Assembly: GCF_029227855.1 (NCBI RefSeq) | Contig: NZ_CP074356.1 | Origin: Escherichia coli | GTDB taxonomy: Bacteria; Pseudomonadota; Gammaproteobacteria; Enterobacterales; Enterobacteriaceae | Length of the DNA stretch: 64,000 nt | Strand: one strand, 5' to 3' | In this document: piece by piece, positions 1-43,376 of the stretch | Position numbering within the stretch: the stretch's first letter is position 1 | How the letters are laid out: each line of letters starts with the position of its first letter | The notes under the pieces: generated by a model | The model's database searches: none | Seen by the model: the letters and a program-made list of their open reading frames with translations, nothing else | Told to the model about the DNA's origin: nothing | Position numbers and translations under genes: made by a program

Positions 1-766
1 TTTTTAAGCCGCGAGACGCATAGGATGACGCGAGAAATCCTTTTGACCACGGGGTGTCATCGCCATCGGTGAAAACAGGTTCTGTACCATAGACAGAAAT
101 TGTTTCGGCGTAACAGGTGTGGCCTAACATACCGAGTTTCAGTTCGGTGGCTTCTTCCAGTGAACACTGGGTCAAGACGCCCGGACGTCCCACCTGTGAG
201 CCGACCAGCAGGGCGATGGCGTTGAACGGGGCATAGCGAGCAACGGCAACGGTGGTTTCCTGTTCATCAAACCCGCGCCATGCGCCTTCAGCTGCGTCGG
301 CGGCAATTTGTACCGGGTTATCTTTGACGTTGGTGACGTGAGCCTGTTGTGATGGTGTTCGACGGGCGCGCATTTTCTGCATCGCCATCATCATCTCTAC
401 CACGTTCATCTGCGAAACAACTTCGACGATTTTTGCAGGCGTCATTGCTGTGGTAAGGGGAACGATATCGCTACGTTTGACATTTGGATCGCACAACATA
501 TTGGCAAGTTTTACCGAATCCATCGCGATGACTTCTTCTGCACGCGCGAGATTGATGCCGTAGCGGGCGATAAAGTGGTCGATCAGGTCAAACTGGCTGG
601 CGGGTTTTCCATCCAGTTCGGTAACGACGCCGTTAACAATTTTGATTGACGGTTTAGGATCGTTCGGGCTTTCCATCGCAATGAAGCCTTCTTCAATCCA
701 CTCTTTAACGAAACCGTCCTGGTTGACCGGGCGTTTTGCCAGTGCTTCAAATCTTTTCGATCTCAT
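1..766 (-). CDS. pduC: B12-dependent propanediol (diol) dehydratase large subunit, N-terminal part; truncated by window edge
   Basis: Minus-strand frame open to position 1; predicted N-terminus MRSKRFEALAKRPVNQDGFVKEWIEEGFIAMESPNDP from ATG at about 764-766; lies directly downstream of pduA-pduB. Confidence 0.85.
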   Translation of the reverse strand, partial: MRSKRFEALAKRPVNQDGFVKEWIEEGFIAMESPNDPKPSIKIVNGVVTELDGKPASQFDLIDHFIARYGINLARAEEVIAMDSVKLANMLCDPNVKRSDIVPLTTAMTPAKIVEVVSQMNVVEMMMAMQKMRARRTPSQQAHVTNVKDNPVQIAADAAEGAWRGFDEQETTVAVARYAPFNAIALLVGSQVGRPGVLTQCSLEEATELKLGMLGHTCYAETISVYGTEPVFTDGDDTPWSKGFLASSYASRGLK

Positions 767-784
767 AAATCTGCCTCAGAGAAT

Positions 785-1597
785 TCAGATGTAGGAAGGG
801 CGATCGTTTTTCGGTGTATCGCCGAGAGTCGAAAGCACGGTTTTACCGATTTCGCGTGCGGAGATGACCGCCTGGCGGACTGCGCCGGAGTCACCCGAGA
901 TAATCAGAATGACTTCATTGCTGTAGCTGGTGCCTTGAGCGGGGGAGCTGTATGCCACAACATCCACATTGGCGGACTTCAGCGCGGTGTCTGCCATCAG
1001 AACACCCACAGCAGCCGGAGCGCCGACAATAACGCCGCAAGCCCGTCCCAATGGTGCACCAAACGCTTTTTCCAGTGCATAGCTGGCGCGGGCGGTATAT
1101 TGCAGCTCAAGATGTCCGGCTTCGTTGGCATAGACATCGCCAAAGGTTCGATCGAGTTCTTTCAGGGCAACTTCAATACCGCGTTTCACGTCGGAAACAT
1201 CGTTGCCACCTAAGAGGATCAATGAGCCGTGTCCGGCACCGCCTTTAGTATCGCGAGGAAGTTCAATGCTAATAACTTCAGTGTTGGTGGCTTTTACCGC
1301 TTCATCAGCGGCCATAATGTGTGGACCTGCGCCAATACGCGCACCCAGAATGCCAATGGAACGATAGCGTTTTTCAAGTTTCATTGCGTCCAACAGGGCG
1401 CTATCAACGTTCGCAATGACCAGACCTACAGTGTCGCCAATAGCGGTGCCAACAAATTCTGTTAATGTGCAGCTTTTTTCTGCCATAGCCGTCTCTCGTA
1501 TTTGATGAGTGGTTTTCGGGAGAACCTCATGCTCTGGCGTCGCTACGCGAGCGATGACCTGCGCCATGATCTGTTCGACCAGTTCATTGCTGCTCAT
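785..1597 (-). CDS. pduB: Bacterial microcompartment shell protein PduB (tandem BMC domains)
   Basis: 270-aa ORF in track; 4-nt overlap with pduA stop; length and sequence typical of PduB. Confidence 0.9.
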
Positions 1598-1878
1598 GGG
1601 TTAATTCCCTTTGGTAAGATTTTTTCGACATCGGTATGTGGGCGGGGAATAACATGTACGGCTTTTACTTCGCCGACGTTACGCGCAGCTGCGGCACCTG
1701 CGTCTGTTGCCGCTTTTACCGCCCCGACATCACCACGAACGATGACGGTCACCAGCCCGGAACCTATTTTTTCGTAGCCGACCAGCAAAACATTTGCCGA
1801 CTTCACCATGGCGTCTGCGGCCTCTATGGCGGCAGTTAAGCCTTTGGTTTCTACCATTCCTAACGCTTCTTGTTGCAT
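1594..1878 (-). CDS. pduA: Bacterial microcompartment shell protein PduA (BMC-H)
   Basis: 94-aa ORF with canonical BMC motif ([23 protein letters not shown]...GDVGAVKAA). Confidence 0.9.
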
Positions 1879-2389
1879 AAAGACCTCGCCTGGATTTTTT
1901 TGACGATATGACTATAAAAAAAAGCGAGGAAAAAGAATGGCTGACTTAATCGGCTAATGAGAAAAATTAATAGAGAACAAATATTATAAAATTGCTTTTA
2001 TGAACTATATGTTGTTAATTTATTAGTTGTTTTGTGGATATTTCAATGTGAATTAATTGCGTTGGCTAGTGAGTTTAATCGCGAGTAATATTTCGTTGAG
2101 TTTAGTTCGAGGAAGGAACTGTGATATTTGTTTCAATTTTATTATATCATGATGGCAATTTTTTATTGTGAAAGTTTGACAGTAATTATTACTTTCAACA
2201 CTGATTAACGCTGTGTTGCATGATTCGGCAATGACAATAATTTGTTATGTTAGCACGATTTTTACACGAGTCTGTCATGCATGTTGGCAATATTTTCTGC
2301 AGAGCAATTTTTTATAGTTGCGCTCGGTATACACAACAATCAGCGCGTAGTTGGCTGATAAAGAAAAACTCCGTAAAGAAGGTGTCACT
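1879..2389. promoter_or_regulatory. AT-rich divergent control region between pduA and pduF-pocR
   Basis: About 500 bp of AT-rich non-coding DNA between divergently oriented operons; no ORF. Individual promoters and binding sites not resolved. Confidence 0.4.
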
Positions 2390-3199
2390 ATGAATGATTC
2401 ACTCAAGGCGCAATGCGTTGCCGAGTTTTTAGGCACCGGACTGTTCCTCTTTTTTGGCATTGGTTGTTTGTGCGCCCTGAAAGTTGCCGGGGCAAGTCTG
2501 GGACTGTGGGAAATTTGTATCATTTGGGGGTTAGGGATTTCGCTTGCTGTTTACCTTACGGCAGGTATTTCCGGCGCTCATCTCAACCCGGCAGTTACCA
2601 TTGCTCTGTGGCTGTTTGCCTCTTTCCCAGCCCGTAAAGTGCTGCCATTTTGTGTGGCGCAATTAGCGGGTGCTTTTGGTGGTGCGATTCTGGCATATTC
2701 TCTCTACAGCAGTTTATTTACCGATTTTGAATCTGCTCACAATATGGTGCGTGGTAGCGCAGAAAGTTTACAACTCGCCAGTATCTTCAGTACTTATCCG
2801 GCAGCGGCGATTAATGTATGGCAAGCTGCGTTGGTCGAAGTGGTCATAACGTCCATGTTAATGGGGTTGATTATGGCGTTGACCGATGACGGTAATGGCG
2901 TACCCAAAGGACCACTTGCGCCTTTACTTATTGGTATTCTGGTTGCTGTTATTGGTGCTTCTACCGGACCATTAACCGGTTTTGCCATGAATCCAGCGCG
3001 TGATTTTGGACCTAAGATTTTCACCTGGCTTGCGGGGTGGGGAGAAATTGCGATGACTGGTGGACGCAATATTCCTTATTTCATTGTACCCATTATTGCA
3101 CCGATCATTGGGGCATGTGTTGGTGCGGCGATTTATCGCTATCTCATTGCAAAGAATTTACCTGTCAATAGTGTAGCGCCTAAAGAAATTAGCGAATAA
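2390..3199 (+). CDS. pduF: Propanediol diffusion facilitator (MIP/GlpF-family channel)
   Basis: Track ORF 2351-3199 starts at TTG; ATG at 2390 gives MNDSLKAQCVAEFLGTGLF...; NPA motifs (HLNPAVT, NPARD) typical of aquaglyceroporins. Confidence 0.85.
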   Translation: MNDSLKAQCVAEFLGTGLFLFFGIGCLCALKVAGASLGLWEICIIWGLGISLAVYLTAGISGAHLNPAVTIALWLFASFPARKVLPFCVAQLAGAFGGAILAYSLYSSLFTDFESAHNMVRGSAESLQLASIFSTYPAAAINVWQAALVEVVITSMLMGLIMALTDDGNGVPKGPLAPLLIGILVAVIGASTGPLTGFAMNPARDFGPKIFTWLAGWGEIAMTGGRNIPYFIVPIIAPIIGACVGAAIYRYLIAKNLPVNSVAPKEISE

Positions 3200-3401
3200 C
3201 GAAATAATCTGGCAGTTATAAACGTTTATTTTTTTACTGTTTGTGATCTGCTTTCCGAACTTATTAAAAAGTCTCCCGCTTCATGGAGGCTTTTGTTATT
3301 GTCCTTTGTGCTTCTCGTCAGTAAATCATCAGGGATGATGTGAAGATTAAATGTAAAACAATTGTTTTGCTATAACAATAAATTAACTGGGAGGTTTTAT
3401 C

Positions 3402-4316
3402 ATGATTTCTGCGGCGACACTTAATTCAGAACTCATTAATAAAATCGCGCAGGATTTTGCGCAGGCGACCAGCCTTGCGGTTGTCGTGGTCAATATTCAC
3501 GGCGATGAAATTTCCGAGCTGTTTAACTTCACTCCATTTTGTCAGATGATGCGGCAACACCCTCAGCTAAGCACTCGATGTCGCATGAGCGATCGTTGTG
3601 GGGGCCTGGAAGCCTCTAAATCCGATCAGCCTTGTATTTATCGCTGTCATGCCGGATTAACCGATTTCTCTATTCCACTGGTAATCGCCGGGCATTTAGT
3701 CGGTTTTGTATTGTGCGGGCAAGTTCGTCTGCGTAATGATGATGTCGATTTGGTCGATATTCTGAATGTCGATGATTGCTGGCAGGCAGATCCCGAATTA
3801 CTTAATGAATTCCGCAAAGTTCCTGAGATGGATTACTCAAGAGTTATGGCCTCTGCTGATTTGTTGAAGTTGATTGTGGAAAATTGCCTCAAAAAACAAC
3901 TCAATTTTGTGGTTATTAAAGAGAACAAATTTCAGTCAGATTCGGTGCGCCAGACTCGTGCGCCTAATCCCCACGACAATAAAATGAAAAAAGCTTTACG
4001 CTATATTGATGCGCATTTATCAGACGATTTGCGTCTGGAAGATGTCGCCTCGCACGTTTATCTAAGTCCTTATTATTTCAGTAAGTTATTCAAGAAATAC
4101 CATGGAATCGGTTTTAATGCGTGGGTAAACCAACAACGGATGGCCAGCGCTCGTGAGTTACTGTGCCATAGTGACTGGAGCATCGCCAGTATTGCGCGTA
4201 ATTTAGGTTTTTCGCAAACCAGTTATTTTTGCAAAGTTTTCCGTCAGACTTATCAGGTTACGCCGCAGGTGTATCGACAGCAAGTGAGTGAAAATGCGGT
4301 GATGGAAACGGTATAG
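3402..4316 (+). CDS. pocR: AraC-family regulator of pdu/cob regulon
   Basis: 304-aa ORF; C-terminal AraC-type HTH (YLSPYYFSKLFKK...); position downstream of pduF as in Salmonella. Confidence 0.9.
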   Translation: MISAATLNSELINKIAQDFAQATSLAVVVVNIHGDEISELFNFTPFCQMMRQHPQLSTRCRMSDRCGGLEASKSDQPCIYRCHAGLTDFSIPLVIAGHLVGFVLCGQVRLRNDDVDLVDILNVDDCWQADPELLNEFRKVPEMDYSRVMASADLLKLIVENCLKKQLNFVVIKENKFQSDSVRQTRAPNPHDNKMKKALRYIDAHLSDDLRLEDVASHVYLSPYYFSKLFKKYHGIGFNAWVNQQRMASARELLCHSDWSIASIARNLGFSQTSYFCKVFRQTYQVTPQVYRQQVSENAVMETV

Positions 4317-4419
4317 AGTAAATGCCCCAAAAAAAGAGGACGGTTTAAATAAACTCTGCAATGAATAATTAACGTTATTTACCTGTTATGGGAAAAGTGA
4401 AATCAGCTCATAACATACG

Positions 4420-4700
4420 CTGACAGGTGTGGCACATTTGTGCCTGGGAAGAGGGTGAAAATCCCTCGCAGCCCCCGCTGCTGTAATGCTGACAAACCCG
4501 AAAATGCCACTGATCGCGAGATTGGGAAGGTCGGGAGAGGATGACGCTAAGCCAGAAGACCAGCCAGTCAGTCAATACCAACAACTTCGGTGGGAAGTGG
4601 GTTGCCCGGAAGCGTCCGGTAGAGTACCGGCGCGTCTTTATACCCCTACCACCCTGAAAGGATCAGGGTATGGCGGCATCATTTAGTTCTTTCATCGCAG
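4420..4700 (+). promoter_or_regulatory. Cobalamin (B12) riboswitch-like leader
   Basis: Conserved motifs GGTGAAAATCCC...GCAGCCCCCGCTGCTGTAA and a B12-box-like element AAGCCAGAAGACCAGCC, upstream of ORF 4801-5238 and cobUST. Confidence 0.6.
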
Positions 4701-4800
4701 TGCCGACAGGCACCAGGGCTGCACTTAAGGTGTGGCAATCTTGTTTCATGGCTCATCAACCAGACCGCCATTACAGGAAACTAAGTGGAGGGCGAGAGGC

Positions 4801-5238
4801 ATGAAAACGATAAAACCCGAATCGATAGCTCTTTTTTGCCTCTTATCTGGAGATGTGGATCTGGCGAAACATTTGGCTGAAATATTGCCAATAACTTGTT
4901 TTGTTGGTGAGGACTGGCAGCAAGATTTCCAGCCTCTTGACGGTGGGCCTGTGCAATCGTTATCAGATGTGTATGGCGATTATTCAGTGCTGCTATTGAT
5001 AGCAGCTGAAAGCGAGATATCCGTACCAGAATGGCTCGCTCATTCTGAAGGAACGACGGTAATTGTGATTGCAGAACACAATACCCGTTTGCTGACTGGT
5101 CCGGCTGGTGGGGCTGTAGCATTGATCCATTATCTGAATGAAATCTGTCATTCCAGAGAAACCGCTGTCAATGACGCATTTTGTCGTACGTTAACACGAG
5201 GAAGTCTGGCTATTCCGCAATGCCATCTTCTTTCGTAA
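4801..5238 (+). CDS. Hypothetical protein (145 aa) downstream of riboswitch-like leader
   Basis: ATG at 4801 preceded by GGAGG-like RBS (track ORF 4732-5238 starts at GTG); no family recognised by eye. Confidence 0.45.
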   Translation: MKTIKPESIALFCLLSGDVDLAKHLAEILPITCFVGEDWQQDFQPLDGGPVQSLSDVYGDYSVLLLIAAESEISVPEWLAHSEGTTVIVIAEHNTRLLTGPAGGAVALIHYLNEICHSRETAVNDAFCRTLTRGSLAIPQCHLLS

Positions 5239-5371
5239 TGGATTGAGAATGCTGGATTTTTAATTATATTACGCGCAGTATTAATCGCGTAAATGTTTTG
5301 CGGTCAGCAACGGTGGGGGATCCATTGTTCTGTTCAATGAATACCATCATACAATTGAATCAGGAGTCGGT

Positions 5372-5917
5372 ATGATGATTTTGGTGACAGGTGGAGCACG
5401 GAGCGGGAAGAGTCGCCACGCAGAGGCGCTTATTGGGGACTCTTCACAGGTTCTGTATATCGCCACCTCGCAAATCCTTGATGATGAGATGGCTGCACGG
5501 ATAGAACATCATCGGCAAGGCCGCCCGGCGCACTGGCGCACGGTGGAGCGCTGGCAACATCTTGATGAATTAATTCATGCAGACATTAACCCGCATGAAG
5601 CTGTGTTGCTGGAATGCGTTACAACAATGGTGACTAATCTGTTGTTTGATTATGGCGGCGATAAAGACCCTGATGAATGGGATTATCAGGCGATGGAACA
5701 GGCGATTAATGCTGAGATTCAGTCGTTGATTGCTGCCTGCCAACGTTGCCCCGCGAAGATTGTATTAGTGACTAACGAAGTGGGAATGGGGATTGTGCCG
5801 GAGAGTCGTCTGGCACGACATTTTCGTGATATTGCCGGGCGGGTAAATCAGCAGCTGGCCGCTGCGGCAAATGAAGTGTGGCTGGTGGTTTCGGGTATTG
5901 GAGTAAAAATCAAATGA
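5372..5917 (+). CDS. cobU: Adenosylcobinamide kinase / adenosylcobinamide-phosphate guanylyltransferase
   Basis: 181-aa ORF with P-loop GGARSGKS; overlaps cobS start. Confidence 0.9.
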
Positions 5918-6657
5918 GTAAATTATTTTGGGCGATGCTCTCTTTTATTACGCGTCTGCCTGTGCCGCGTCGCTGGTCCCAGGGACTGGATTTCGAGCAT
6001 TATTCTCGCGGTATTATTACTTTTCCTTTAATTGGTTTATTGCTTGGCGCGATTAGCGGGCTGGTCTTCATGGCGTTGCAGGCATGGTTTGGCGTACCAC
6101 TGGCGGCACTGTTTAGCGTGCTGGTGCTGGCGCTGATGACCGGGGGATTCCACCTGGACGGCCTCGCCGATACCTGTGATGGCGTATTTTCTGCACGTAG
6201 CCGCGATCGCATGTTGGAAATCATGCGTGATAGCCGTTTAGGCACCCACGGCGGTCTGGCATTGATTTTTGTTGTACTGGCAAAGATTCTGGTGTTAAGC
6301 GAGCTGGCTTTGCGTGGCGAACCGATCCTTGCATCGCTGGCGGCAGCATGCGCGGTCAGCCGCGGGACTGCCGCATTATTGATGTATCGTCATCGTTATG
6401 CCCGGGAAGAAGGACTTGGCAATGTGTTCATTGGCAAAATTGATGGGCGACAAACCTGCGTCACACTCGGCTTAGCCGCTATTTTTGCTGCCGTATTATT
6501 GCCGGGTATGCATGGTGTGGCTGCTATGGTGGTGACGATGGTGGCGATTTTCATCCTCGGTCAGCTTCTCAAACGTACGCTGGGCGGGCAAACCGGCGAT
6601 ACGCTGGGAGCAGCCATAGAGCTTGGTGAACTGGTCTTCCTGCTGGCACTGCTATAA
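5914..6657 (+). CDS. cobS: Cobalamin (5'-phosphate) synthase
   Basis: Integral membrane protein; internal ATG at 5914 ([16 protein letters not shown]...) gives 247 aa; ATGA overlap with cobU. Confidence 0.9.
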
Positions 6658-6668
6658 AGAGACGTGAC

Positions 6669-7748
6669 ATGCAAATACTTGCCGATTTACTGAATACGAT
6701 CCCAGCCATCGATCCTACCGCTATGTCGCGTGCACAACGGCATATTGACGGGTTACTCAAACCTGTTGGTAGCCTGGGAAAGCTGGAGGCGCTTGCCATA
6801 CAACTGGCGGGAATGCCGGGGTTGAATGGCATACCGCATGTGGGCAAAAAAGCGGTACTGGTTATGTGTGCCGATCACGGCGTCTGGGAGGAAGGGGTCG
6901 CTATTTCCCCAAAAGAAGTGACAGCCATTCAGGCTGAAAATATGACCCGCGGAACAACCGGCCTGTGTGTGCTGGCAGCACAAGCGGGCGCTAACGTCCA
7001 CGTAATTGATGTTGGTATTGATACTGCTGAGCCTATCCCCGGGCTTATCAACATGCGTGTCGCACGAGGTAGCGGCAATATTGCTTCAGCTCCGGCAATG
7101 AGTCGCCGTCAGGCTGAAAAGTTGTTTTTGGACGTCATATGTTATACGCGGGAGCTGGCAAAAAACGGTGTCACGCTGTTTGGTGTAGGTGAACTGGGGA
7201 TGGCAAACACGACACCGGCAGCGGCAATAGTCAGCACAATCACTGGCCGGGATCCTGAAGAAGTGGTTGGGATTGGCGCAAACCTGCCGACAGATAAACT
7301 GGCTAATAAAATTGATGTTGTGCGTCGGGCGATTACGTTGAATCAACCAAATCCTCAGGATGGTGTTGATGTCCTGGCAAAAGTGGGTGGATTTGATTTG
7401 GTCGGAATAGCTGGAGTGATGTTAGGTGCTGCTTCCTGCGGTTTACCCGTGTTGCTGGATGGATTTCTTTCTTATGCTGCTGCGCTCGCAGCCTGCCAGA
7501 TGTCTCCTGCAATCAAACCGTATCTCATTCCTTCTCACTTGTCGGCAGAAAAAGGCGCGCGTATAGCGCTGTCGCATTTGGGGCTGGAGCCTTATCTCAA
7601 TATGGATATGCGTTTAGGTGAGGGGAGTGGTGCAGCTCTGGCGATGCCCATCATCGAAGCTGCTTGTGCGATATACAACAACATGGGCGAACTTGCTGCC
7701 AGTAATATTGTTCTACCGGGGAATACGACTTCTGATTTGAACAGTTAA
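6669..7748 (+). CDS. cobT: Nicotinate-nucleotide--dimethylbenzimidazole phosphoribosyltransferase
   Basis: 359-aa ORF; cobU-cobS-cobT order. Confidence 0.9.
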
Positions 7749-7809
7749 AAACGAAAAGTCTGATAAAAGCTATACTTAACCGATAGCTTTCGCGACTTAG
7801 GAAAGGGAC

Positions 7810-8745
7810 ATGATGCGTCGTGTAAATATTTTTTGCTCATTTGCTCTACTTTTTGCCAGCCATAATAGCCTGGCGGTAACTTATCCATTACCTCCAGAGG
7901 GTAGCCGTTTAGTGGGACAGTCGCTTACTGTAACTGTTCCTGATCACAATACCCAGCCGCTGGAGACTTTTGCCGCACAATACGGGCAAGGGTTAAGTAA
8001 CATGCTGGAAGCGAATCCGGGCGCTGATATTTTCTTGCCGAAGTCAGGCTCGCAACTCACCATTCCGCAGCAACTGATTTTGCCCGCCACTATTCGTAAA
8101 GGGATTGTGGTTAACGTCGCTGAGATGCGTCTTTATTACTACCCACCAGACAGTAATTCTGTGGAAGTCTTTCCTATTGGTATCGGCCAGGCTGGGCGAG
8201 AAACCCCGCGTAACTGGGTGACTACCGTTGAACGTAAACAAGAAGCACCAACCTGGACGCCAACGCCGAACACCCGGCGCGAATATGCGAAACGAGGGGA
8301 GAGTTTGCCCGCATTTGTTCCTGCGGGGCCTGATAATCCCATGGGGCTGTATGCGATTTATATTGGCAGGCTATATGCCATCCACGGTACCAATGCCAAT
8401 TTTGGTATTGGGCTCCGGGTAAGTCAGGGCTGTATTCGTCTGCGCAATGACGATATCAAATATCTGTTTGATAATGTTCCTGTAGGTACTCGTGTACAAA
8501 TTATTGATCAGCCAGTGAAATACACAACGGAACCGGATGGATCAAAGTGGCTGGAAGTTCATGAGCCGCTGTCGCGCAATCGTGCTGAATATGAGTCTGA
8601 CCGAAAAGTGCCATTGCCGGTAACCCCATCTTTGCGGGCGTTTATCAACGGGCAAGAAGTTGATGTGAATCGCGCAAATGCTGCGTTGCAACGTCGATCG
8701 GGAATGCCTGTGCAAATTAGTTCTGGTTCAAGACAGATGTTTTAA
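7810..8745 (+). CDS. ldtA: L,D-transpeptidase (YkuD/ErfK domain)
   Basis: 311-aa ORF with signal peptide and catalytic motif [20 protein letters not shown]. Confidence 0.85.
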
Positions 8746-8764
8746 GAGCGTTGGTAATTAGAAA

Positions 8765-8797
8765 GCAAAAAGCCTGCTTGAAAGCAGGCTTTTTTGA
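8765..8797 (+). terminator. Rho-independent terminator after ldtA
   Basis: Hairpin AAAGCCTGCTT-GAAA-GCAGGCTTT followed by a T run. Confidence 0.5.
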
Positions 8798-8800
8798 ATT

Positions 8801-8876
8801 TGGCTCCTCTGACTGGACTCGAACCAGTGACATACGGATTAACAGTCCGCCGTTCTACCGACTGAACTACAGAGGA
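8801..8876 (-). tRNA. asnV: tRNA-Asn (GUU)
   Basis: Reverse complement reads TCCTCTGTAGTTCAGTCGGTAGAACGGCGGACTGTTAATCCG...GAGGAGCCA; one of four identical copies in the window. Confidence 0.9.
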
Positions 8877-9131
8877 ATCGTGTGAACGGGGCGCATATTA
8901 ATGGCAGTACATGGTGATGTCAAAGGGTGAAATGCATTTTTTTGTTTGTTTGCTGTCAATTTCAACAAAGTGGTGAGCTTTCAATCTTATTGGGCAATGA
9001 ACCATCGTGGTGCATACCCTCCTTTTATGGGGCAGGGGAACGCGACTGCTGATAAAAAGAACCTATGACGAATCTATCATAATCTCTTATTTGACAGTTG
9101 GTTAGCTTGTACATCAACGCCAAAATAAAAC

Positions 9132-9202: not shown

Positions 9203-10120
9203 ATGAACTTCAGACGCCTGAAATACTTCGTAAAAATTGTAGATATTGGTAGCCTGACCCAAGCTGCTGAAGTATTGCATATCGCACAACCAGCGCTCAG
9301 TCAGCAGGTTGCCACACTGGAAGGTGAGTTAAATCAACAACTTTTGATTCGCACAAAACGGGGCGTTACGCCAACTGACGCCGGAAAAATTCTCTATACC
9401 CATGCGCGGGCCATTTTACGTCAGTGTGAGCAGGCCCAACTGGCGGTGCATAACGTTGGTCAGGCATTATCGGGGCAAGTCTCGATTGGCTTTGCGCCAG
9501 GAACCGCTGCGTCATCCATCACCATGCCCTTATTACAGGCGGTTCGCGCTGAATTCCCGGAGGTCGTTATCTATCTTCATGAAAATAGCGGTGCAGTGCT
9601 TAACGAAAAACTGATAAATCACCAACTCGATATGGCGGTGATTTATGAGCATTCCCCTGTGGCTGGTGTATCCAGTCAGGCTTTACTGAAAGAAGATCTT
9701 TTTCTGGTAGGAACCCAAGATTGCCCGGGGCAAAGCGTTGATGTTAATGCTATTGCGCAAATGAACCTCTTTCTCCCAAGTGATTACAGTGCTATTAGAC
9801 TTCGTGTTGATGAGGCTTTTTCCCTACGGCGACTCACGGCAAAAGTCATTGGTGAAATTGAGTCTATTGCCACGCTTACCGCAGCGATTGCCAGCGGCAT
9901 GGGCGTTGCAGTATTACCCGAATCGGCCGCGCGTTCGTTATGTGGCGCAGTAAATGGTTGGATGTCACGCATTACCACTCCTTCCATGAGTCTCTCTTTG
10001 TCATTAAATTTACCCGCCAGAGCGAACTTATCGCCACAGGCACAGGCAGTGAAAGAGTTGTTAATGTCAGTGATGAGTTCTCCAGTGATGGAAAAAAGGC
10101 AGTGGCAATTGGTGAGCTAA
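9203..10120 (+). CDS. nac: Nitrogen assimilation control protein (LysR family)
   Basis: Internal ATG at 9203 gives 305 aa starting MNFRRLKYFVKIVDIGSLTQAAEVLHIAQPALSQQV. Confidence 0.9.
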   Translation: MNFRRLKYFVKIVDIGSLTQAAEVLHIAQPALSQQVATLEGELNQQLLIRTKRGVTPTDAGKILYTHARAILRQCEQAQLAVHNVGQALSGQVSIGFAPGTAASSITMPLLQAVRAEFPEVVIYLHENSGAVLNEKLINHQLDMAVIYEHSPVAGVSSQALLKEDLFLVGTQDCPGQSVDVNAIAQMNLFLPSDYSAIRLRVDEAFSLRRLTAKVIGEIESIATLTAAIASGMGVAVLPESAARSLCGAVNGWMSRITTPSMSLSLSLNLPARANLSPQAQAVKELLMSVMSSPVMEKRQWQLVS

Positions 10121-10221
10121 GCGTTATATCGGGATGGAATAAGATGCGGGTTTTTATTATTTGTTATGCCGGGCATTAGACTTTAACAATAACGGGATAT
10201 CTGAACTGCCCGGAGTTTACC

Positions 10222-11172
10222 GTGAATTTCCAACAACTAAAGATAATCCGCGAGGCTGCACGTCAGGATTACAACCTGACAGAGGTTGCGAATATGCTTT
10301 TTACCTCACAGTCAGGCGTCAGCCGTCACATTCGGGAACTGGAGGATGAACTTGGCATCGAAATATTTGTTCGACGAGGTAAGCGACTGCTGGGCATGAC
10401 TGAACCGGGCAAAGCATTACTGGTCATTGCAGAACGCATTCTTAATGAAGCCAGTAATGTTCGTCGGCTTGCAGACCTGTTTACCAACGATACGTCTGGC
10501 GTTCTCACTATTGCAACGACGCATACTCAGGCACGTTATAGCTTGCCTGAGGTCATTAAAGCTTTTCGCGAACTTTTCCCGGAGGTTCGGCTGGAGCTAA
10601 TCCAGGGTACACCACAGGAAATTGCGACGTTGTTGCAAAATGGCGAAGCTGATATTGGTATCGCCAGCGAGCGTTTGAGTAATGACCCGCAGCTCGTCGC
10701 CTTCCCGTGGTTTCGTTGGCACCATAGTTTGCTTGTTCCACTCGATCATCCCTTGACGCAAATTACACCGTTGACGCTGGAATCAATAGCGAAGTGGCCG
10801 TTAATTACTTACCGACAGGGGATTACGGGGCGCTCACGTATTGATGACGCATTTGTCCGCAAAGGTTTGCTGGCAGATATTGTATTAAGTGCGCAGGATT
10901 CTGATGTCATTAAAACCTATGTTGCTCTTGGGCTGGGGATCGGATTAGTTGCCGAACAATCCAGTGGTGAACAAGAGGAAAAGAATTTAATCCGTCTGGA
11001 TACGAGGCATCTTTTCGATGCTAATACTGTCTGGTTGGGACTGAAGCGAGGGCAACTTCAACGTAACTATGTCTGGCGCTTTCTGGAACTTTGTAATGCA
11101 GGACTGTCAGTTGAGGATATCAAGCGCCAGGTGATGGAGAATAGTGAAGAGGAAATTGATTATCAGATATAG
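10222..11172 (+). CDS. cbl: CysB-like LysR-family regulator
   Basis: 316-aa ORF, LysR HTH; adjacent to nac as in E. coli. Confidence 0.9.
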   Translation: MNFQQLKIIREAARQDYNLTEVANMLFTSQSGVSRHIRELEDELGIEIFVRRGKRLLGMTEPGKALLVIAERILNEASNVRRLADLFTNDTSGVLTIATTHTQARYSLPEVIKAFRELFPEVRLELIQGTPQEIATLLQNGEADIGIASERLSNDPQLVAFPWFRWHHSLLVPLDHPLTQITPLTLESIAKWPLITYRQGITGRSRIDDAFVRKGLLADIVLSAQDSDVIKTYVALGLGIGLVAEQSSGEQEEKNLIRLDTRHLFDANTVWLGLKRGQLQRNYVWRFLELCNAGLSVEDIKRQVMENSEEEIDYQI

Positions 11173-11209
11173 CAAAAAGCCCGCTATAAAAGCGGGCTTT
11201 TCAGAAATT

Positions 11210-11285
11210 TGGCTCCTCTGACTGGACTCGAACCAGTGACATACGGATTAACAGTCCGCCGTTCTACCGACTGAACTACAGAGGA
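11210..11285 (-). tRNA. asnU: tRNA-Asn (GUU)
   Basis: Identical 76-nt tRNA-Asn sequence on minus strand; preceded by hairpin terminator 11176-11203. Confidence 0.9.
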
Positions 11286-22755: not shown

Positions 22756-23358
22756 ATGAGGTATTTTCTCTTTATATTTATAACAATCCCCCTTATCTCT
22801 GGAGGTCATATGAGTAATGATAGCGAAAAGATAATATCAACATATTCGCTCAATTTTTTATCACCAGATGATGTGAGGAAAGAAGAACTTAAGGCATCAC
22901 AAGGTGATAGTGATGCTGCATTTAAATTGTACAAATATTACCTTTTTTGCGAGCCAAAATCATACAGAAAACAGCACGAATGGTTAATAATATCGGCAAA
23001 TAATGGAAATGCTATAGCTCAATATAACTTATCAAGAGAACTTGAGTCAGAAGGAAAAGTAGATGAATCAATACAATGGCTGAAAAAATCAGCGGAACAT
23101 GGTAATAATTATGCACAATATCAGATATCAAAATATTTATTAAAAATAGGTGATATTAGAGGATCGGAATATTATCTAAACTTATCTGCGGATAACGGAT
23201 GTGTATTTGCAATAAAAGATATTATCAAAAATATGATGGATAGTGGAAGGTACGATGACGCCCTCATTTGGGTTGAAAAATTGAAAAAATTGTATCCTGA
23301 CACAAATACCGAACTTTACATACAAAAAATAACGCAGAAAAAAAAGCAATCCAAATAA
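22756..23358 (+). CDS. Sel1-repeat protein; putative cognate immunity protein of the Rhs C-terminal toxin
   Basis: Starts 2 nt after the toxin stop; alternative start at 22807 has a strong GGAGG RBS; Sel1-like repeats (GNAIAQYNL..., GNNYAQYQIS...); AT-rich. Confidence 0.6.
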   Translation: MRYFLFIFITIPLISGGHMSNDSEKIISTYSLNFLSPDDVRKEELKASQGDSDAAFKLYKYYLFCEPKSYRKQHEWLIISANNGNAIAQYNLSRELESEGKVDESIQWLKKSAEHGNNYAQYQISKYLLKIGDIRGSEYYLNLSADNGCVFAIKDIIKNMMDSGRYDDALIWVEKLKKLYPDTNTELYIQKITQKKKQSK

Positions 23359-29673: not shown

Positions 29674-37656
<7,983 letters not shown>

Positions 37657-37968
37657 GCTTACCTTCCCTGAACGAGCTAACATAAATGCGCCCTTTCTAG
37701 CACAGCGAAAAAATATAAATCCTGATAGCAATATGATTGAAAATTAATAACTTTTCGTTAGGCAGTTTTGGGTGTGAGTTGCAAGAGGGGAGACTACTGA
37801 ATTACTCAAGTTTTATAATCGAGGGGAAAATGGTGATGGCGTCCATAGCAAAACGCCCTCAACCATAAAGGTCGAGGGCGCTTAAGATGTCAAAAACCCG
37901 CTATCCGTTAAAAAGCAATGCTCAACTAAGGTCAGTGACATTGCGCTAAAAAGCAAATTTTTAGAATT

Positions 37969-38044
37969 TGGCTCCTCTGACTGGACTCGAACCAGTGACA
38001 TACGGATTAACAGTCCGCCGTTCTACCGACTGAACTACAGAGGA
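37969..38044 (-). tRNA. asnT: tRNA-Asn (GUU)
   Basis: Identical 76-nt tRNA-Asn on minus strand. Confidence 0.9.
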
Positions 38045-38144
38045 ATCGTGTGAACGGGGCGCATATTACTTAGCGGTACCTTGTCTGTCAACACTAAATT
38101 TCATAAGTCATTTCAATTGGTTAATTAATCTGCAAAGTTGTTAA

Positions 38145-38942
38145 TTAATGAACATTCGTCGTCGAAAACGAGTCTGTATCATTAGCGTGGTGCAGTCTCT
38201 GCAAAGGATCTTGTTGATAAAATTGGCAGAAACGTTGCCACAATGAAGGGAAACGAGGAGCAAAAAGTTCTGGGGCGCTAAAGAAATATTCAGAAAGTAC
38301 GGCAAAACATTCAGCAGGATCACTGGCAGCATAAGCATCAATGCTCGCCGCATTCTCGCCAACCAATTCGATTTCTTCCTGAATGTTGTTCATTGCAGCA
38401 TGAAGATCGTATTCCCAGCCAGCAACCTCACGCAACGGAATAAAGGGAACTCCGCTGGCGCGATCGCCGTTACGGGTGTCCAGCTTATGAGCGACTTCAT
38501 GAATAATCAGGTTAAAACCAGAAGCATCAAAAGAATCTTGTATATCCAACCAGTTCAAAACGATAGGCCCTTGCTGCCAGCTCTGACCTGACTGAACAAT
38601 ACGTTGGTTATGCACCAGACCGATATCGTCTTCCCATTCATCATCGACCACAAATGGCGCAGGATAAATTAAGACTTCATGAAAACCATCCAGCCATTCC
38701 AGTCCTAACTCCAGAACGGGCAGGCAAAATAGAAGTGCTATCCGGCAGCTTCTTAATGAATCCAGTTCAAAGCCCTGTAAAGGAACAAGCCGCTTTTGCT
38801 GTAAAAAACGTTCGGCAAGAGTGACTAATTTGCTTTGTTCCTGTTCCGTCAGACACGTTAAAAGGGGGATCGATAGTGCTTCCTGCCAGGGAAGGGCAGT
38901 TTGATGTGCTGATTCTTGTACTTTCCAGGGCCACTTAATCAT
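38145..38942 (-). CDS. mtfA: Mlc titration factor A (zinc-dependent peptidase family)
   Basis: Internal ATG gives 265 aa starting [14 protein letters not shown]; HExxH motif ([10 protein letters not shown]). Confidence 0.85.
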
Positions 38943-39035
38943 CGTTTTGCTCGCAAACTCGTCACTTGAACAAAATTGCACGGACAGGGACTGTTAAAAT
39001 GCCAAATTTCCTGGCATCATGGCAACCATCTGAAC

Positions 39036-39125
39036 GGAGAGATGCCGGAGCGGCTGAACGGACCGGTCTCGAAAACCGGAGTAGGGGCAACTCTACCGGG
39101 GGTTCAAATCCCCCTCTCTCCGCCA
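39036..39125 (+). tRNA. serU: tRNA-Ser (CGA); prophage integration site
   Basis: GGAGAGATGCCGGAGCGGCTGAACGGACCGGTCTCGAAAACCGG...CTCTCCGCCA with long variable arm; integrase gene begins about 50 bp downstream. Confidence 0.9.
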
Positions 39126-39177
39126 AAATTCAATCACTTATACATCATTAAGTCAGTGACAAAAATCACACTTGGAA

Positions 39178-40203
39178 TTACTTGGAATATTTTCTTGGAA
39201 TATTTTCAGGTAACGGGACATCAAGTGTCGGTGAAACTTTAACCTTCCTGTCATAGATTAGCACTTGCCCCTCGGTTTTGTGACCAGAGAAAAGTTGCTT
39301 ATCCCGACTGCTTCCTTCATAGTCTGAAATTCCTTTCGCCTTCAGATCATGAAAGGTGAAGTCGGTTAAAATACCTGAAATTTTGCCTGCGCGATTTCTT
39401 GCTTCTACCCACATTTCGTTAAAGCCTTTGTACATATATCGGTTGCCGTACTGATTGCTGATTACATAGGCGGATGTTGGTAACTGTTTTGCTTTTTCGA
39501 TCGCCGCCTGTAATCGTGGACTCCATGCTTTTATCTGTTTTTTTCCTGTTTTCCCTTGCTGGATAAAGATCCCGTCGTTTCCAATCTGCTCCCATTTCAG
39601 CGATAACACATCGGAAACCCTCGCTGCACACAGATAGGCAATTTCCATTGCGATAAAAACAGGAAGAGGTGCAACGCTTAATACTGCCTGGTATTCTTTG
39701 TCGGTTACATATCGTTCGCGGTTTTTGGCCTTGAATTTACTTACACCTGCACATGGGTTAGCCTTCACGTACCCTCGCTCATACCCCCAACTGTAAACGC
39801 GGGACATACTGCTTTTTTCATGGTTGGCTTGCGTTTTACTCTGTTCCCCTCTCTTGTCCATGTATCGACGGATGTGTTCTGGTTTTATGGAATCTGCCGG
39901 CACCTTACCGAATACGGCAAGCAACTTTTTTTGATGTTGCAGATAATCTTTTTGTGTTCTTGGACTGAGGTCACTGTAATAGGCGCTGGCGAGGAATTTT
40001 TCCCACAAGCGACCGAATGTCATTGCACGATCGCGATTATTTACAGTTTCCTCATACTTTTTCCATAAAGCAGCTAAACCATCCTTGATGGCGGTTAGTG
40101 TTACAGATTCTCTGGATGTTGGTTTCCATACATAACTATATTTATTTGGGTATACATTTGGAGGTAATTTTTCGTGTTCAGGATTTTTCCTTCGTCTTCC
40201 CAT
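39178..40203 (-). CDS. int: Phage integrase (tyrosine recombinase)
   Basis: 341-aa ORF starting MGRRRKNPEHEKLPPNVY (lambda-Int-like N-terminus); adjacent to tRNA-Ser. Confidence 0.9.
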   Translation of the reverse strand: MGRRRKNPEHEKLPPNVYPNKYSYVWKPTSRESVTLTAIKDGLAALWKKYEETVNNRDRAMTFGRLWEKFLASAYYSDLSPRTQKDYLQHQKKLLAVFGKVPADSIKPEHIRRYMDKRGEQSKTQANHEKSSMSRVYSWGYERGYVKANPCAGVSKFKAKNRERYVTDKEYQAVLSVAPLPVFIAMEIAYLCAARVSDVLSLKWEQIGNDGIFIQQGKTGKKQIKAWSPRLQAAIEKAKQLPTSAYVISNQYGNRYMYKGFNEMWVEARNRAGKISGILTDFTFHDLKAKGISDYEGSSRDKQLFSGHKTEGQVLIYDRKVKVSPTLDVPLPENIPRKYSK

Positions 40204-40406
40204 CAGATCGCACCAAAATTCGGCTCTACCTCGCGTGGTGGTAAAGTTTTATTGCAGGTAAATAGATCCCGGCTGACAATCGGTTTGCCACTACGATTGG
40301 TATAGAACGGAAGCCCGTTTTCCATTAACCATTTTCGCTGGTGGCTTGCATATTTGCAGCCCGTTAATATTAGCAATTCATCTTCGGTTAAAAATAAGCT
40401 GCTCAT
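40203..40406 (-). CDS. xis: Excisionase-like protein
   Basis: 67-aa ORF immediately upstream of int and overlapping its start. Confidence 0.6.
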   Translation of the reverse strand: MSSLFLTEDELLILTGCKYASHQRKWLMENGLPFYTNRSGKPIVSRDLFTCNKTLPPREVEPNFGAI

Positions 40407-40464
40407 AGCTATATCTCATAACCGCCGCTAACTATATACGGTTAGCGGCAATTAGGGTTGAACA

Positions 40465-42906
40465 TTAAAAATCAGCCTGACTCGGGATCAGTTTTTGCCA
40501 GATAGCTGAAACGTATTTTGCCTGGTAACGAGCGTCATCAAGTGCATTATGGCGCTCACCTTCGAATGGAATAGCCGTTCTGGCATCGAAGTCTATGGCT
40601 TTCCCCAGCTCAACGATTGTGCGTACATCGCGATCGTTGTAGTAACGCCACGGGCAGGGGATCCCCTGCCGTTCGTATGAACGGCGCAAAATCGTGTTGT
40701 CGAAGTTGGCTCCATTTCCCCAGACCTGAACAAAAAATTCACCGGAGTTTTCGTCGATAAATTCCCGCAATTGTAACAGTGCATCATCTAACGGGATTTC
40801 ATCGGTCATAATGGCAGATTGCGCTTCGCGTGATTGCTTAAGCCACCATTTAATGGTGTCCCGATCAATGACTCCGCCAGCAGTTTCCAGATCGATAGTC
40901 TTACTAAATTCCGGTCCCATATCTCCGGTTTGCGGATCGAAAAATATTGCACCTATTGAGATGATCGGGGCATCAGGATTTTTTCCCATGGTTTCAAGGT
41001 CGATCATTAGATGGTCACACGTCCTGCTGGTGGATGTGATTTCGTGATGACCATTCACCGTAATTAAGGGATCTGCCGTCTCGCCAGTTTTACTATCGCT
41101 GGCGTGGTCCTGAGCGCTGCCAGCATTCTCCTTGTGTGGATGTTCAGCGCCTTCCATTTCCTCCGGATCATTTTCCTGAACTTCAACCTGATTCTCTTCA
41201 TCGAATGTTTTCTGGTATGTTGCGTCGCCCATCACCGCGCCACAATCAGGGCAGTTGCCGCCACCGCTCTGACCGCAGGCGGAGCAGACTTTTTCCGGTT
41301 CCTGTTGCGCTACTGGTTCGGATTGTTTCGTTTCTGGCTCGTTTTGTAACGCATTTGGGCTGTTTTGTTCCGCTTTTTGGTCGTTCCGTTCCGATTCATG
41401 CTGGTTCTGGTTCACAGAATCGCGAGTCTGGATCCCCTTGACCCATTTCGGATCATTAGGGTCGCTAATCCCCTCAACAAATTCACCACGCGATACAGCA
41501 AGTAACTTATCGGCGTCAGGCTGGCTGATATTGGCTGCCTGCATAATTTTGTTTACTTCGTCAGCGGTGACTTTTACTTGGTTAGCGGAACTCACCTGCG
41601 ACTGAGCATCCAGCGACTGCGCGTTCTGGCAATGTTCAGTTGTATCCGGTTCCATTGTTTCAGTTGTTGCCTGTTCACCTGCCATTGCGTCAGATGGTTG
41701 TGGTTTTTCTTCTTCTGTTTCACGCTCAGTAACCACCTCGCGGTTAATTTCTTCCAGGATATCTTTTTCCGGCGTATGCCGGGCAGCTGTGAGAGTTTCC
41801 TTGCTGGGGTTCTCGTGATCAGTTTCCGTCAAATAGGCGTTGATATACCCCTGAAGGCGTCCCGGGTAGTGATAAAATTCAGGGTGTGCGCTTCGGATAA
41901 GTGCAAAAATAGCGGCGCGGGAATAGTCCAGAATACCCGGGGTTGCACGAAGTGCTGCGGACCATTCTTTGAACGGACTTTCTTTTTTCAGGACTACTTC
42001 TTTTGCGCGACGATAAACGCTGCCCGGAATTTCATAAATATTAAAATCCATCGGAAGTGTGGCTGCTGCAATCTCCACATCCAGTGTGTCGAGGGTGTGT
42101 ACTAAATTCGGACTGCGATCGGTTTTGTTCCCACCGCCAGCATTAGCACCGGAAGCCGTGCGGGTGATGCGTGAAACACGATTTCCTTTCATCCACTCTT
42201 TTGTCAGCAGACCCCGATCAGTGTAGTCAGCGTCCAGGTATGCTTCGAAAAAAGCAGTTATTAGTCCCAGGTCTGAATTACCAGGATTAGGGAAAACTTT
42301 GTCAGTGTCACGAACCAGTTTGTGGAGGTCGCGAATCTCCAGCGAGTCGAGCAGACTGGTTTTATGCGAAATAGCCAGGGCAGTAACAGCCGGTAGTTCT
42401 TCAGCCCGTGCAATGTGTAATGCCTGGAGTTCGTCGCGTGAAACGTGCGTTACTGGTTTTTCGCTGCCGTGTTGAGCAAGCCAACGAATGGGCAGTTCCT
42501 GACCGGAGACAGGTAGAAGCATGCTCTCCTCAATCTCAGTCATGTCTTCGCCGTTGATGTTGGTATTATCAGTGCTGGCTGATTTGTCCTGAACAGAGGG
42601 GGAAGGGCCGATAAATGTCATTGTGATGCCATCTTTCCCGCCTTTTTCATAGCGGTTGCAGAATTCAGTATCAAACACGCCTTCTGGCGGAAGGTCGTCA
42701 ACAACGGGCAAATTGACGCGGACGGGTTTTTTAAAGTCGTCTTCATCATAATCGTTGTCATCCATTGCGGTAATGCAGCGGGAGATTGCAACAGATAATT
42801 TTTTTGCTGTAGTCCAGTAAAAACCACCTTTAATTCCTAGGCGTTTTCTTACTTTGTCATTTTTTGCTTCGCAATATAGTGCAAATTCTTCTTTATCAGT
42901 GCTCAT
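40465..42906 (-). CDS. Prophage exonuclease (813 aa) with C-terminal DEDD/DnaQ-like 3'-5' exonuclease domain
   Basis: C-terminal motifs MIDLETMG and HNALDDA; CxxC...CxxC zinc-ribbon-like motif (CSACG...CPDCG); long acidic low-complexity middle. Confidence 0.7.
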
Positions 42907-42999
42907 TATTGATAAACCTCATCACAGATTTAAGGGTGAACAAATCTCTGCCATTGCTGACATATAAGAATGAAACTGGATATTTATTACGGTGCTGTT

Positions 43000-43191
43000 T
43001 TAAAATCCTGCCGGGATTTCGTTATTATCCTGGTGAATAACTTTATCGACCGGATAACAGTTGCCTGGAATTTTCTGTTCGGTTGCTGCTGCCATACATT
43101 CCTGCATTGTTCTGTGAACACTGACTGCAATATCAACTGGCTCTCCGGAAACAAGAAAAACCGTCAGAATAAGTGCAAATACTGGATTCAT
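43000..43191 (-). CDS. ydfD: YdfD-like small lysis/membrane protein
   Basis: Internal start MNPVFALILTVFLVSGEPVDIAVSVHRTMQECM... (63 aa); start overlaps the dicB stop. Confidence 0.6.
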   Translation of the reverse strand: MNPVFALILTVFLVSGEPVDIAVSVHRTMQECMAAATEQKIPGNCYPVDKVIHQDNNEIPAGF

Positions 43192-43376
43192 TGTGCACAT
43201 CCTTTTGGCATCAGACGTAAACGGGCCAGCATTGAAACAATGCATACTTTATTTAATAACTCCCGTTCGTGTTTTCTTTTGTTAATGGCCTCTTCAGTAA
43301 ATACAGGATTACTGATAGTGACACCAATTTCAAAACAACCTTCAGACGTATTAACGTTTGGTAATAACGTTTTCAT
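43188..43376 (-). CDS. dicB: Cell-division inhibitor DicB
   Basis: 62-aa ORF MKTLLPNVNTSEGCFEIGVTISNPVFTEEAINKRK... essentially matches the Qin prophage DicB as recalled. Confidence 0.8.
   Translation of the reverse strand: MKTLLPNVNTSEGCFEIGVTISNPVFTEEAINKRKHERELLNKVCIVSMLARLRLMPKGCAQ

Follow-up and report, generated by a model that had tools for sequence, protein, structure and literature searches.

How did genes for the use of 1,2-propanediol come to stand near the cobalamin genes cobUST in an Escherichia coli chromosome, at a site where K-12 carries other DNA? We addressed this question in a stretch of 64,000 nucleotides of E. coli (contig NZ_CP074356.1 of assembly GCF_029227855.1), here called the window, whose first 4,316 positions carry the pdu genes pduC, pduB, pduA and pduF and the regulatory gene pocR. 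We are highly confident that positions 1-4316 are the promoter-proximal end of a chromosomal pdu locus in what is apparently the ancestral Escherichia arrangement, and that the pdu-negative majority of the species has lost it. A sequence-only reading of the window had suspected a presence/absence polymorphism, and this is what we observed at a single fixed position in the chromosome: this end was found in 639 (11.8%) of 5,426 complete E. coli genomes, being counted as present when at least 80% of positions 1-4316 was matched. The polymorphism itself is already known; it stands in the RefSeq annotation and has been published for adherent-invasive E. coli and for the lineage ST372 (PMC4509574, PMC9997745, PMC9220930).

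The genes were called from a six-frame list of open reading frames together with searches of curated profiles (NCBIfam and Pfam, and Rfam for RNAs), and RefSeq uses the same gene names in a genome whose sequence agrees with window positions 1-9000 at 100% identity. Two shell proteins of a microcompartment are encoded in the window. PduB scored 474 bits against NF011944 (cut-off 173) and 398 bits against TIGR04501 (cut-off 310), and PduA, which carries this name in RefSeq (WP_001183614.1), scored 103 bits with the BMC domain PF00936; PduJ, a PduK-like protein, PduN, PduT and PduU are annotated in the closely matching genome NZ_AP045174.1. The signature enzyme PduCDE is represented in the window by the N-terminal 255 residues of PduC, and full-length pduC, pduD and pduE are present in NZ_AP045174.1. 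The product of pduC is the large subunit of the B12-dependent diol dehydratase. The fragment scored 504 bits against its profile over profile positions 2-256 of 555, which is under the full-length cut-off only because the window edge cuts the gene, and the pduC stretch of the window is identical to the full 1,665-nucleotide pduC of NZ_AP045174.1. The facilitator PduF (225 bits against TIGR00861, cut-off 171) and the regulator PocR (553 bits against NF047788, cut-off 500) are encoded divergently from pduA, as the sequence-only reading had stated and as is expected of a Pdu microcompartment locus. That reading had also recognised pduC, pduB and pduA, which the profile scores support, and had taken them for the end of an operon; this part did not hold, since pduA is the first gene and the window thus contains the promoter-proximal start.

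The remainder of the operon lies beyond the window. Four complete genomes are 100% identical to the window over positions 1-9000, and one of them, NZ_AP045174.1, differs by 6 mismatches in the first 29,000 positions. When the operon was followed upstream in this genome, as had been advised, it was intact from pduA to pduV: between tmaR and pocR/pduF the order is pduA-B-C-D-E-G-H-J-K-L-M-N-O-P-Q-S-T-U-V with zero pseudogene flags, and no pduW or pduX is annotated there between pduV and tmaR. PduGH, PduL, PduO, PduP, PduQ and PduS are annotated as intact both in NZ_AP045174.1 and in the adherent-invasive strain LF82; their genes lie outside the window and are presumed to be intact in the source strain. 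Across all 5,426 genomes, at least 80% of the 13.4-kilobase (kb) stretch from pduV to pduC was found in 637.

Comparison with K-12 revealed what has happened at this site in a pdu-negative strain. In MG1655 the order is cobU, the pseudogene yeeH, the insertion sequence IS5H, the rest of CP4-44, yoeD/yoeF and tmaR, so that IS5 and CP4-44 material does stand next to cobU, as the sequence-only reading had stated. Both edges of the site retain remnants of the pdu-positive state. On the left, the 3' end of pduV, about 183 nucleotides next to tmaR, corresponds to yoeF; on the right, the last 260-300 base pairs (bp) or so before cobU, including the 3' end of a remnant of the cobalamin gene cbiG, correspond to yeeH, and homology to the DNA between pocR and cobU begins at about window position 5070-5112. 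CP4-44 is annotated at 2066020-2078748 in K-12 and exactly fills the gap between these two scars. The flanking genes cobUST, ldtA and tmaR are the same in K-12, at 96-98% identity, and the 260-300 bp upstream of cobU are likewise shared, with the promoter-like site that they contain, but the 12.7-kb CP4-44 with IS5 and IS2 replaces about 17.6 kb from nucleotide 183 of pduV to the middle of the cbiG remnant. The segment missing from K-12 holds the pdu operon, pduF, pocR and a cobalamin riboswitch. Since there are scars at both ends with CP4-44 between them, the K-12 state is derived from a pdu-positive one. The two comparisons proposed by the sequence-only reading gave these results: K-12 has IS5H and CP4-44 in exactly the slot that the pdu genes occupy here, and LF82 has the same arrangement as the window.

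Similar scars were found throughout the species. The 3' end of pduV next to tmaR is kept in 5,409 of the 5,426 genomes, with a breakpoint at nucleotide 183 common to about four fifths of the sampled rows, and 5,397 genomes match part or more of the 1,055-bp spacer between pocR and cobU, mostly only its cobU-proximal end. On the cobU side the breakpoints fall into several classes, at spacer positions 582/590, 751, 787, 796 (the K-12 class), 868/873 and 916/928. Clean deletions also exist, in which the pduV remnant is joined straight to the cbiG remnant with no island, and other genomes, for example O104:H4, have different island or insertion sequence content. Our comparisons show that loss rather than gain would explain most of this species-wide pattern.

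The arrangement is not confined to E. coli. Escherichia whittamii and two further loci, which belong to separate GTDB species representatives with records titled E. coli, share pduA, pduF, pocR, the riboswitch, the cbiG remnant, cobUST and ldtA. Between Escherichia lineages, synonymous sites of pocR and pduF have diverged by 0.24-0.60, a level of similar order to the 0.35-0.73 of ldtA and cobT. Within E. coli, the pdu DNA of the window strain and LF82 is 97.5-98.3% identical and gap-free over the 13.4 kb from pduV to pduC, and the flanking core genes are 96.9-98.2% identical. Taken together, the pduV and cbiG scars, the genus-wide layout and the matching divergence favour an ancestral locus with repeated loss. 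The ancestral Escherichia order appears to have been tmaR, pduV back to pduA, pduF, pocR, a decayed cob leader, cobUST and ldtA. Besides, among 646 genomes that match positions 1-4316 there was one whose best match reached only 60-80% identity, and this genome may possess a pdu locus of foreign, non-Escherichia origin.

The opposite history, in which pdu is a recently acquired genomic island from, for example, Salmonella or Citrobacter and the K-12 layout is the ancestral one, has several points in its favour: the patchy distribution over about 12% of genomes, the position of the locus among tRNA-Asn genes and islands, and the ST372 study, which inferred multiple acquisitions tied to genomic islands (PMC9997745). 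Moreover, Lawrence and Roth proposed in 1996, as related in PMC3158058, that cob/pdu was lost in the ancestor of E. coli and Salmonella. Nevertheless, we consider this history very improbable. Truncated pduV and cbiG remnants stand at both edges in K-12 and in nearly all pdu-negative genomes, so pdu must have been there first. The same layout occupies the same site in other Escherichia species, and the pdu genes have diverged as much as flanking core genes within E. coli, and to a comparable order between Escherichia species. The PocR of the window shares 96-97% identity with its counterparts in other Escherichia, against about 90% with those of Citrobacter and Salmonella, and the operon DNA of E. 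coli and LT2 is only 77.5% identical (PMC9997745). On this evidence the locus is unlikely to have come from another genus.

An even fainter prospect is that the pdu genes seen here are a non-functional remnant, with the operon truncated or decayed beyond the window. The window ends at pduC codon 255, which leaves the remaining operon unseen, the adjacent cbi genes have decayed, and 2 of the 639 genomes with this end are without most of the operon. However, the other 637 have at least 80% of its 13.4 kb, so that the upstream truncation or absence which would have spoken against a pdu locus fails in about 99.7% of the genomes having this end. In the one genome that was inspected among the four with identity over 9 kb, the operon is fully intact. 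The ratio of nonsynonymous to synonymous substitution rates (dN/dS) is 0.03-0.08 for pduF and pocR, and the orthologues of PduA, PduB and the PduC fragment in other Escherichia share 97-100% identity with them; together these values indicate strong purifying selection. Some observations nonetheless weigh against an intact ancestral locus with loss in the majority. Because the window breaks off within pduC, that the source strain has the whole operon is a strong inference from near-identical genomes, and the window is collinear with NZ_AP045174.1 only to position 39141, a prophage from 39142 onwards being absent from that genome. It is possible that the locus was regained within the species by homologous recombination across its conserved flanks, as has been proposed for ST372 (PMC9997745). 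The patchy distribution has moreover been read in the ST372 study as multiple acquisitions and not as losses (PMC9997745).

Under the ancestral arrangement that we favour, the neighbourhood of pdu and cobUST has an explanation of its own. The linkage noted in the sequence-only reading is real, yet it is not direct, because a spacer of 1,055 bp (4317-5371) separates pocR from cobU and contains a cobalamin riboswitch and remnants of cbiA and cbiG (Table 1). CobU, CobS and CobT are intact, and all three score over their equivalog cut-offs. Starting from salvaged cobinamide, these proteins build the nucleotide loop of cobalamin. Citrobacter, Salmonella, Klebsiella, Yersinia and related genera have a series of cbi genes behind pocR, of which cbiG stands about 7.5 kb downstream; the compared loci of Salmonella and Citrobacter reach about 10 kb past pocR, short of the junction from cbiP to cobU. 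In the window the de novo (anaerobic) cobalamin operon is absent between pocR and cobU, where only the leader, the start of cbiA and an N-terminal part of cbiG are found. It is thus through the loss of the cbi genes, which serve de novo B12 synthesis, that pdu came to lie beside cobUST.

Table 1. Positions, strands and supporting evidence of the features called in the window
Feature	Position	Strand	Support
pduC, first 255 codons, no stop, leaves the window at its left edge	2-766 (feature row 1..766)	-	NF011979
pduB, microcompartment shell protein with tandem BMC domains	785-1597	-	NF011944, TIGR04501
pduA, hexameric shell protein, first gene of the pdu operon	1594-1878	-	Pfam BMC domain PF00936
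Putative divergent control region of pduA/pduF	1879-2389		AT-rich, GC about 0.35 (composition profile)
pduF, propanediol diffusion facilitator, MIP-family channel	2390-3199	+	TIGR00861; RefSeq name PduF
pocR, AraC-family activator of pdu and cob genes	3402-4316	+	NF047788
Cobalamin riboswitch aptamer, leader of the former cbiA-cobT operon	4408-4582	+	RF00174
44-codon frame, apparent cbiA remnant	4670-4804	+	starts at conserved cbiA hairpin/ATG; translation compared with Salmonella CbiA
cbiG remnant, 145 codons, from the N-terminal part of CbiG	4801-5238	+	tblastn to Salmonella CbiG
Promoter-like site, TTGAGA, 16-nucleotide spacer, TATATT	5243-5270	+	consensus scan, 10/12 matches
cobU	5372-5917	+	NF004469, 247 bits (cut-off 161)
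cobS	5914-6657	+	TIGR00317, 304 bits (cut-off 110)
cobT	6669-7748	+	NF000996, 465 bits (cut-off 306)
ldtA	7810-8745	+

The riboswitch in the spacer matched RF00174 over the full model with 109.4 bits (gathering score 31.5, E = 2.7e-27), and window positions 4404-4678 are 82% identical to the cob leader of Salmonella and Citrobacter, through a ribosome-binding hairpin and the ATG of cbiA (4670). The stretch of 36 nucleotides with the hairpin and the ATG is invariant in four Escherichia loci, Salmonella and Citrobacter. Folding predicts the ribosome-binding hairpin, but with an energy that does not improve on shuffled sequence (z = 0.1); it is the invariance of the sequence that supports it, and not thermodynamics. 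Right after this leader, the 44-codon frame looks like a remnant of cbiA. Its N-terminus MAASFSSFIAVPTG resembles that of Salmonella CbiA, MAARHHAFILAGTG, with the pattern MAA..FI..TG, but the tblastn match of CbiA comprises 15 N-terminal residues at E = 1.9 and is not significant alone; the assignment rests on the position directly behind the conserved leader and ATG. The TGA of this frame overlaps the ATG (4801) of the cbiG remnant as ATGA, and both the length of 44 codons and the overlap are present in four Escherichia lineages.

The second frame is 42% identical to residues 3-125 of Salmonella CbiG (E = 1e-22) and is labelled a hypothetical or cobalamin biosynthesis protein in annotations. 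A full CbiG, the cobalt-precorrin-5A hydrolase, would be expected to have about 350 residues with middle and C-terminal domains. The remnant scored 67.7 bits against NF004463, where the cut-off is 546, and covered positions 1-125 of 351. The motifs IGATGIAVRV and SGHAGGAN of Salmonella CbiG are changed to IAAES---EISV and TGPAGGAV in the remnant, and Pfam gave no match for it or for the 44-codon frame. When Salmonella CbiA through CbiJ were searched by tblastn against the 1,055-bp spacer (E up to 10), only CbiG was significant. Judged by these remnants, the spacer is the decayed leader of a former cob operon. The best promoter-like site of the region (Table 1) lies upstream of cobU and past the stop codon of the cbiG remnant, in a part that is near-identical in K-12. 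From its match to the consensus, this site may drive cobUST independently, including in strains without the riboswitch leader.

Two genomes in our comparison are of note. In Escherichia sp. MOD1-EC7003, cbi genes stand behind a pocR of 84% identity, and cbiG is matched about 7.5 kb further on (positions 10001-17839 of its locus); this locus resembles those of Citrobacter and Salmonella, unlike other Escherichia loci. The metagenome-assembled genome HRGM_Genome_0066, assigned to Citrobacter sp., has two pocR loci, one like that of E. coli (PocR 98%, with the cbiG remnant) and one like that of Citrobacter (88%, with cbiG far downstream); this bin probably mixes E. coli and Citrobacter contigs.

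We also inspected the non-coding parts of the pdu end and the DNA beyond ldtA. In the region between pduA and pduF there are two weak promoter-like sites, at 2121-2150 (+) and 2046-2017 (-), and by analogy with the pdu/pocR system of Salmonella we infer a regulatory role for this region. The intergenic region between pduF and pocR contains an Rfam match to STnc230, an enterobacterial small RNA, at 3258-3341 (-) with 71 bits (gathering score 50), which overlaps a terminator-like hairpin at 3267-3294. Further downstream, a degenerate island at about 13271-23358, as mapped from positions 33271-43358 of the annotated locus of NZ_AP045174.1, follows the third tRNA-Asn gene and comprises two integrase genes that carry frameshifts, small hypothetical genes, a gene of 4.2 kb for an RHS core protein and one for a TPR protein. 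The prophage at 39142-64000 adjoins a tRNA-Ser gene and contains genes for a terminase, a portal protein and an S49 peptidase; at least 80% of it is covered in 32 E. coli genomes, with 99.4-99.5% identity in the six listed. As NZ_AP045174.1 lacks this prophage, the window stems from another strain than this best match.

The locus closely follows the cob-pdu regulon of Salmonella enterica (pocR, pduF, pduA-pduX, cbiA-cobT), which has the same divergent organisation of pduA and pduF-pocR, and in which pocR is likewise followed by this B12 riboswitch leader, at 82% identity to the end of the cbiA ATG. PduA, PduB and the PduC fragment are 90-98% identical to their Salmonella counterparts and PocR about 90%, whereas the pdu DNA of the two organisms is about 77% identical (PMC9997745). 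In Salmonella cobT likewise flanks one end of the cluster, and the cluster ends with pduX (PMC3158058), while the annotated E. coli operon ends at pduV. The gap from pocR to the leader is about 230 nucleotides shorter in the window, and Salmonella has the cbi genes after pocR where the window has no more than the beginning of cbiA and an N-terminal piece of cbiG. Among pdu-positive E. coli, the strains LF82, NC101 and CUMT8 and the lineage ST372 have the same locus at the same site and in the same gene order, including the riboswitch and the 145-codon frame (PMC4509574), which is LF82_328, 'CbiG', in the LF82 annotation. No structural difference separates them from the window; the differences are allelic only and at core-genome level.

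From the Salmonella system and the literature on E. coli knock-outs, the following mechanism may be proposed. PduF would admit 1,2-propanediol into the cell, and PocR bound to it would activate the pdu operon. PduA, PduB and the other shell proteins would form the microcompartment, inside which the B12-dependent PduCDE and downstream enzymes would convert propanediol to propionyl-CoA and propanol while propionaldehyde is contained. With the cbi genes of the de novo B12 route lost, the pathway depends on imported corrinoids; B12 would be taken up as such, or CobUST would finish it from cobinamide. When adenosylcobalamin is plentiful, the riboswitch would repress translation at the old cbiA start. 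A role of the operon in propanediol use has been described for the adherent-invasive strain CUMT8, in which a pduC deletion mutant did not grow on 1,2-propanediol (PMC9220930).

Are the remnant frames in the leader more than debris? The cbiG remnant evolves fast, its protein being 68-72% identical between Escherichia lineages, and its dN/dS of 0.43-0.61 is relaxed, though below 1, compared with 0.02-0.16 in neighbouring genes. It is open at 144-145 codons in four Escherichia lineages, and E. albertii and E. marmotae likewise have homologues 144 residues long. With the observed substitutions placed at random, the chance of a stop-free frame was 0.07-0.13 per pair. In LF82 the cbiG-remnant frame is transcribed (PMC4509574, Table 3), and the hairpin and ATG before the 44-codon frame are, as noted, invariant from Escherichia to Salmonella. 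The open frames despite fast change, together with the low stop-free chance, are modest evidence which suggests that weak selection keeps the frames open and possibly relays riboswitch control to cobUST. In such a relay the open frames would pass the translational control of the B12 riboswitch to cobUST by translational coupling and by preventing transcriptional polarity. That riboswitch, 44-codon frame and cbiG remnant form a selected relay of this kind, or that the cbiG remnant is a small protein with a new role, is a tentative idea which we hold to be doubtful. About 88% of E. coli do without the riboswitch leader. A literature search for a description of a leader of riboswitch, remnants and cobUST in E. 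coli found nothing relevant. The sole mildly new finding is that both remnant frames have remained open throughout the genus.

The strain analyzed in our study belongs to the roughly 12% of E. coli that are pdu-positive, and its locus is not a new system. Provided that corrinoids are available, pdu allows the use of 1,2-propanediol, which arises when fucose and rhamnose are fermented. It is an established strain marker, enriched in the adherent-invasive E. coli of Crohn's disease and in the canine lineage ST372, and its enrichment in adherent-invasive strains has been reported earlier (PMC4509574). The modest added value of our analysis is that the K-12 pseudogenes yoeF and yeeH are the two edges of a lost pdu-cob segment. 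Moreover, a second cobalamin riboswitch, which K-12 lacks, has been retained ahead of cobUST in pdu-positive strains. If the relay proposed above is true, the approximately 88% of E. coli without the leader, K-12 included, would express cobUST without feedback by B12.

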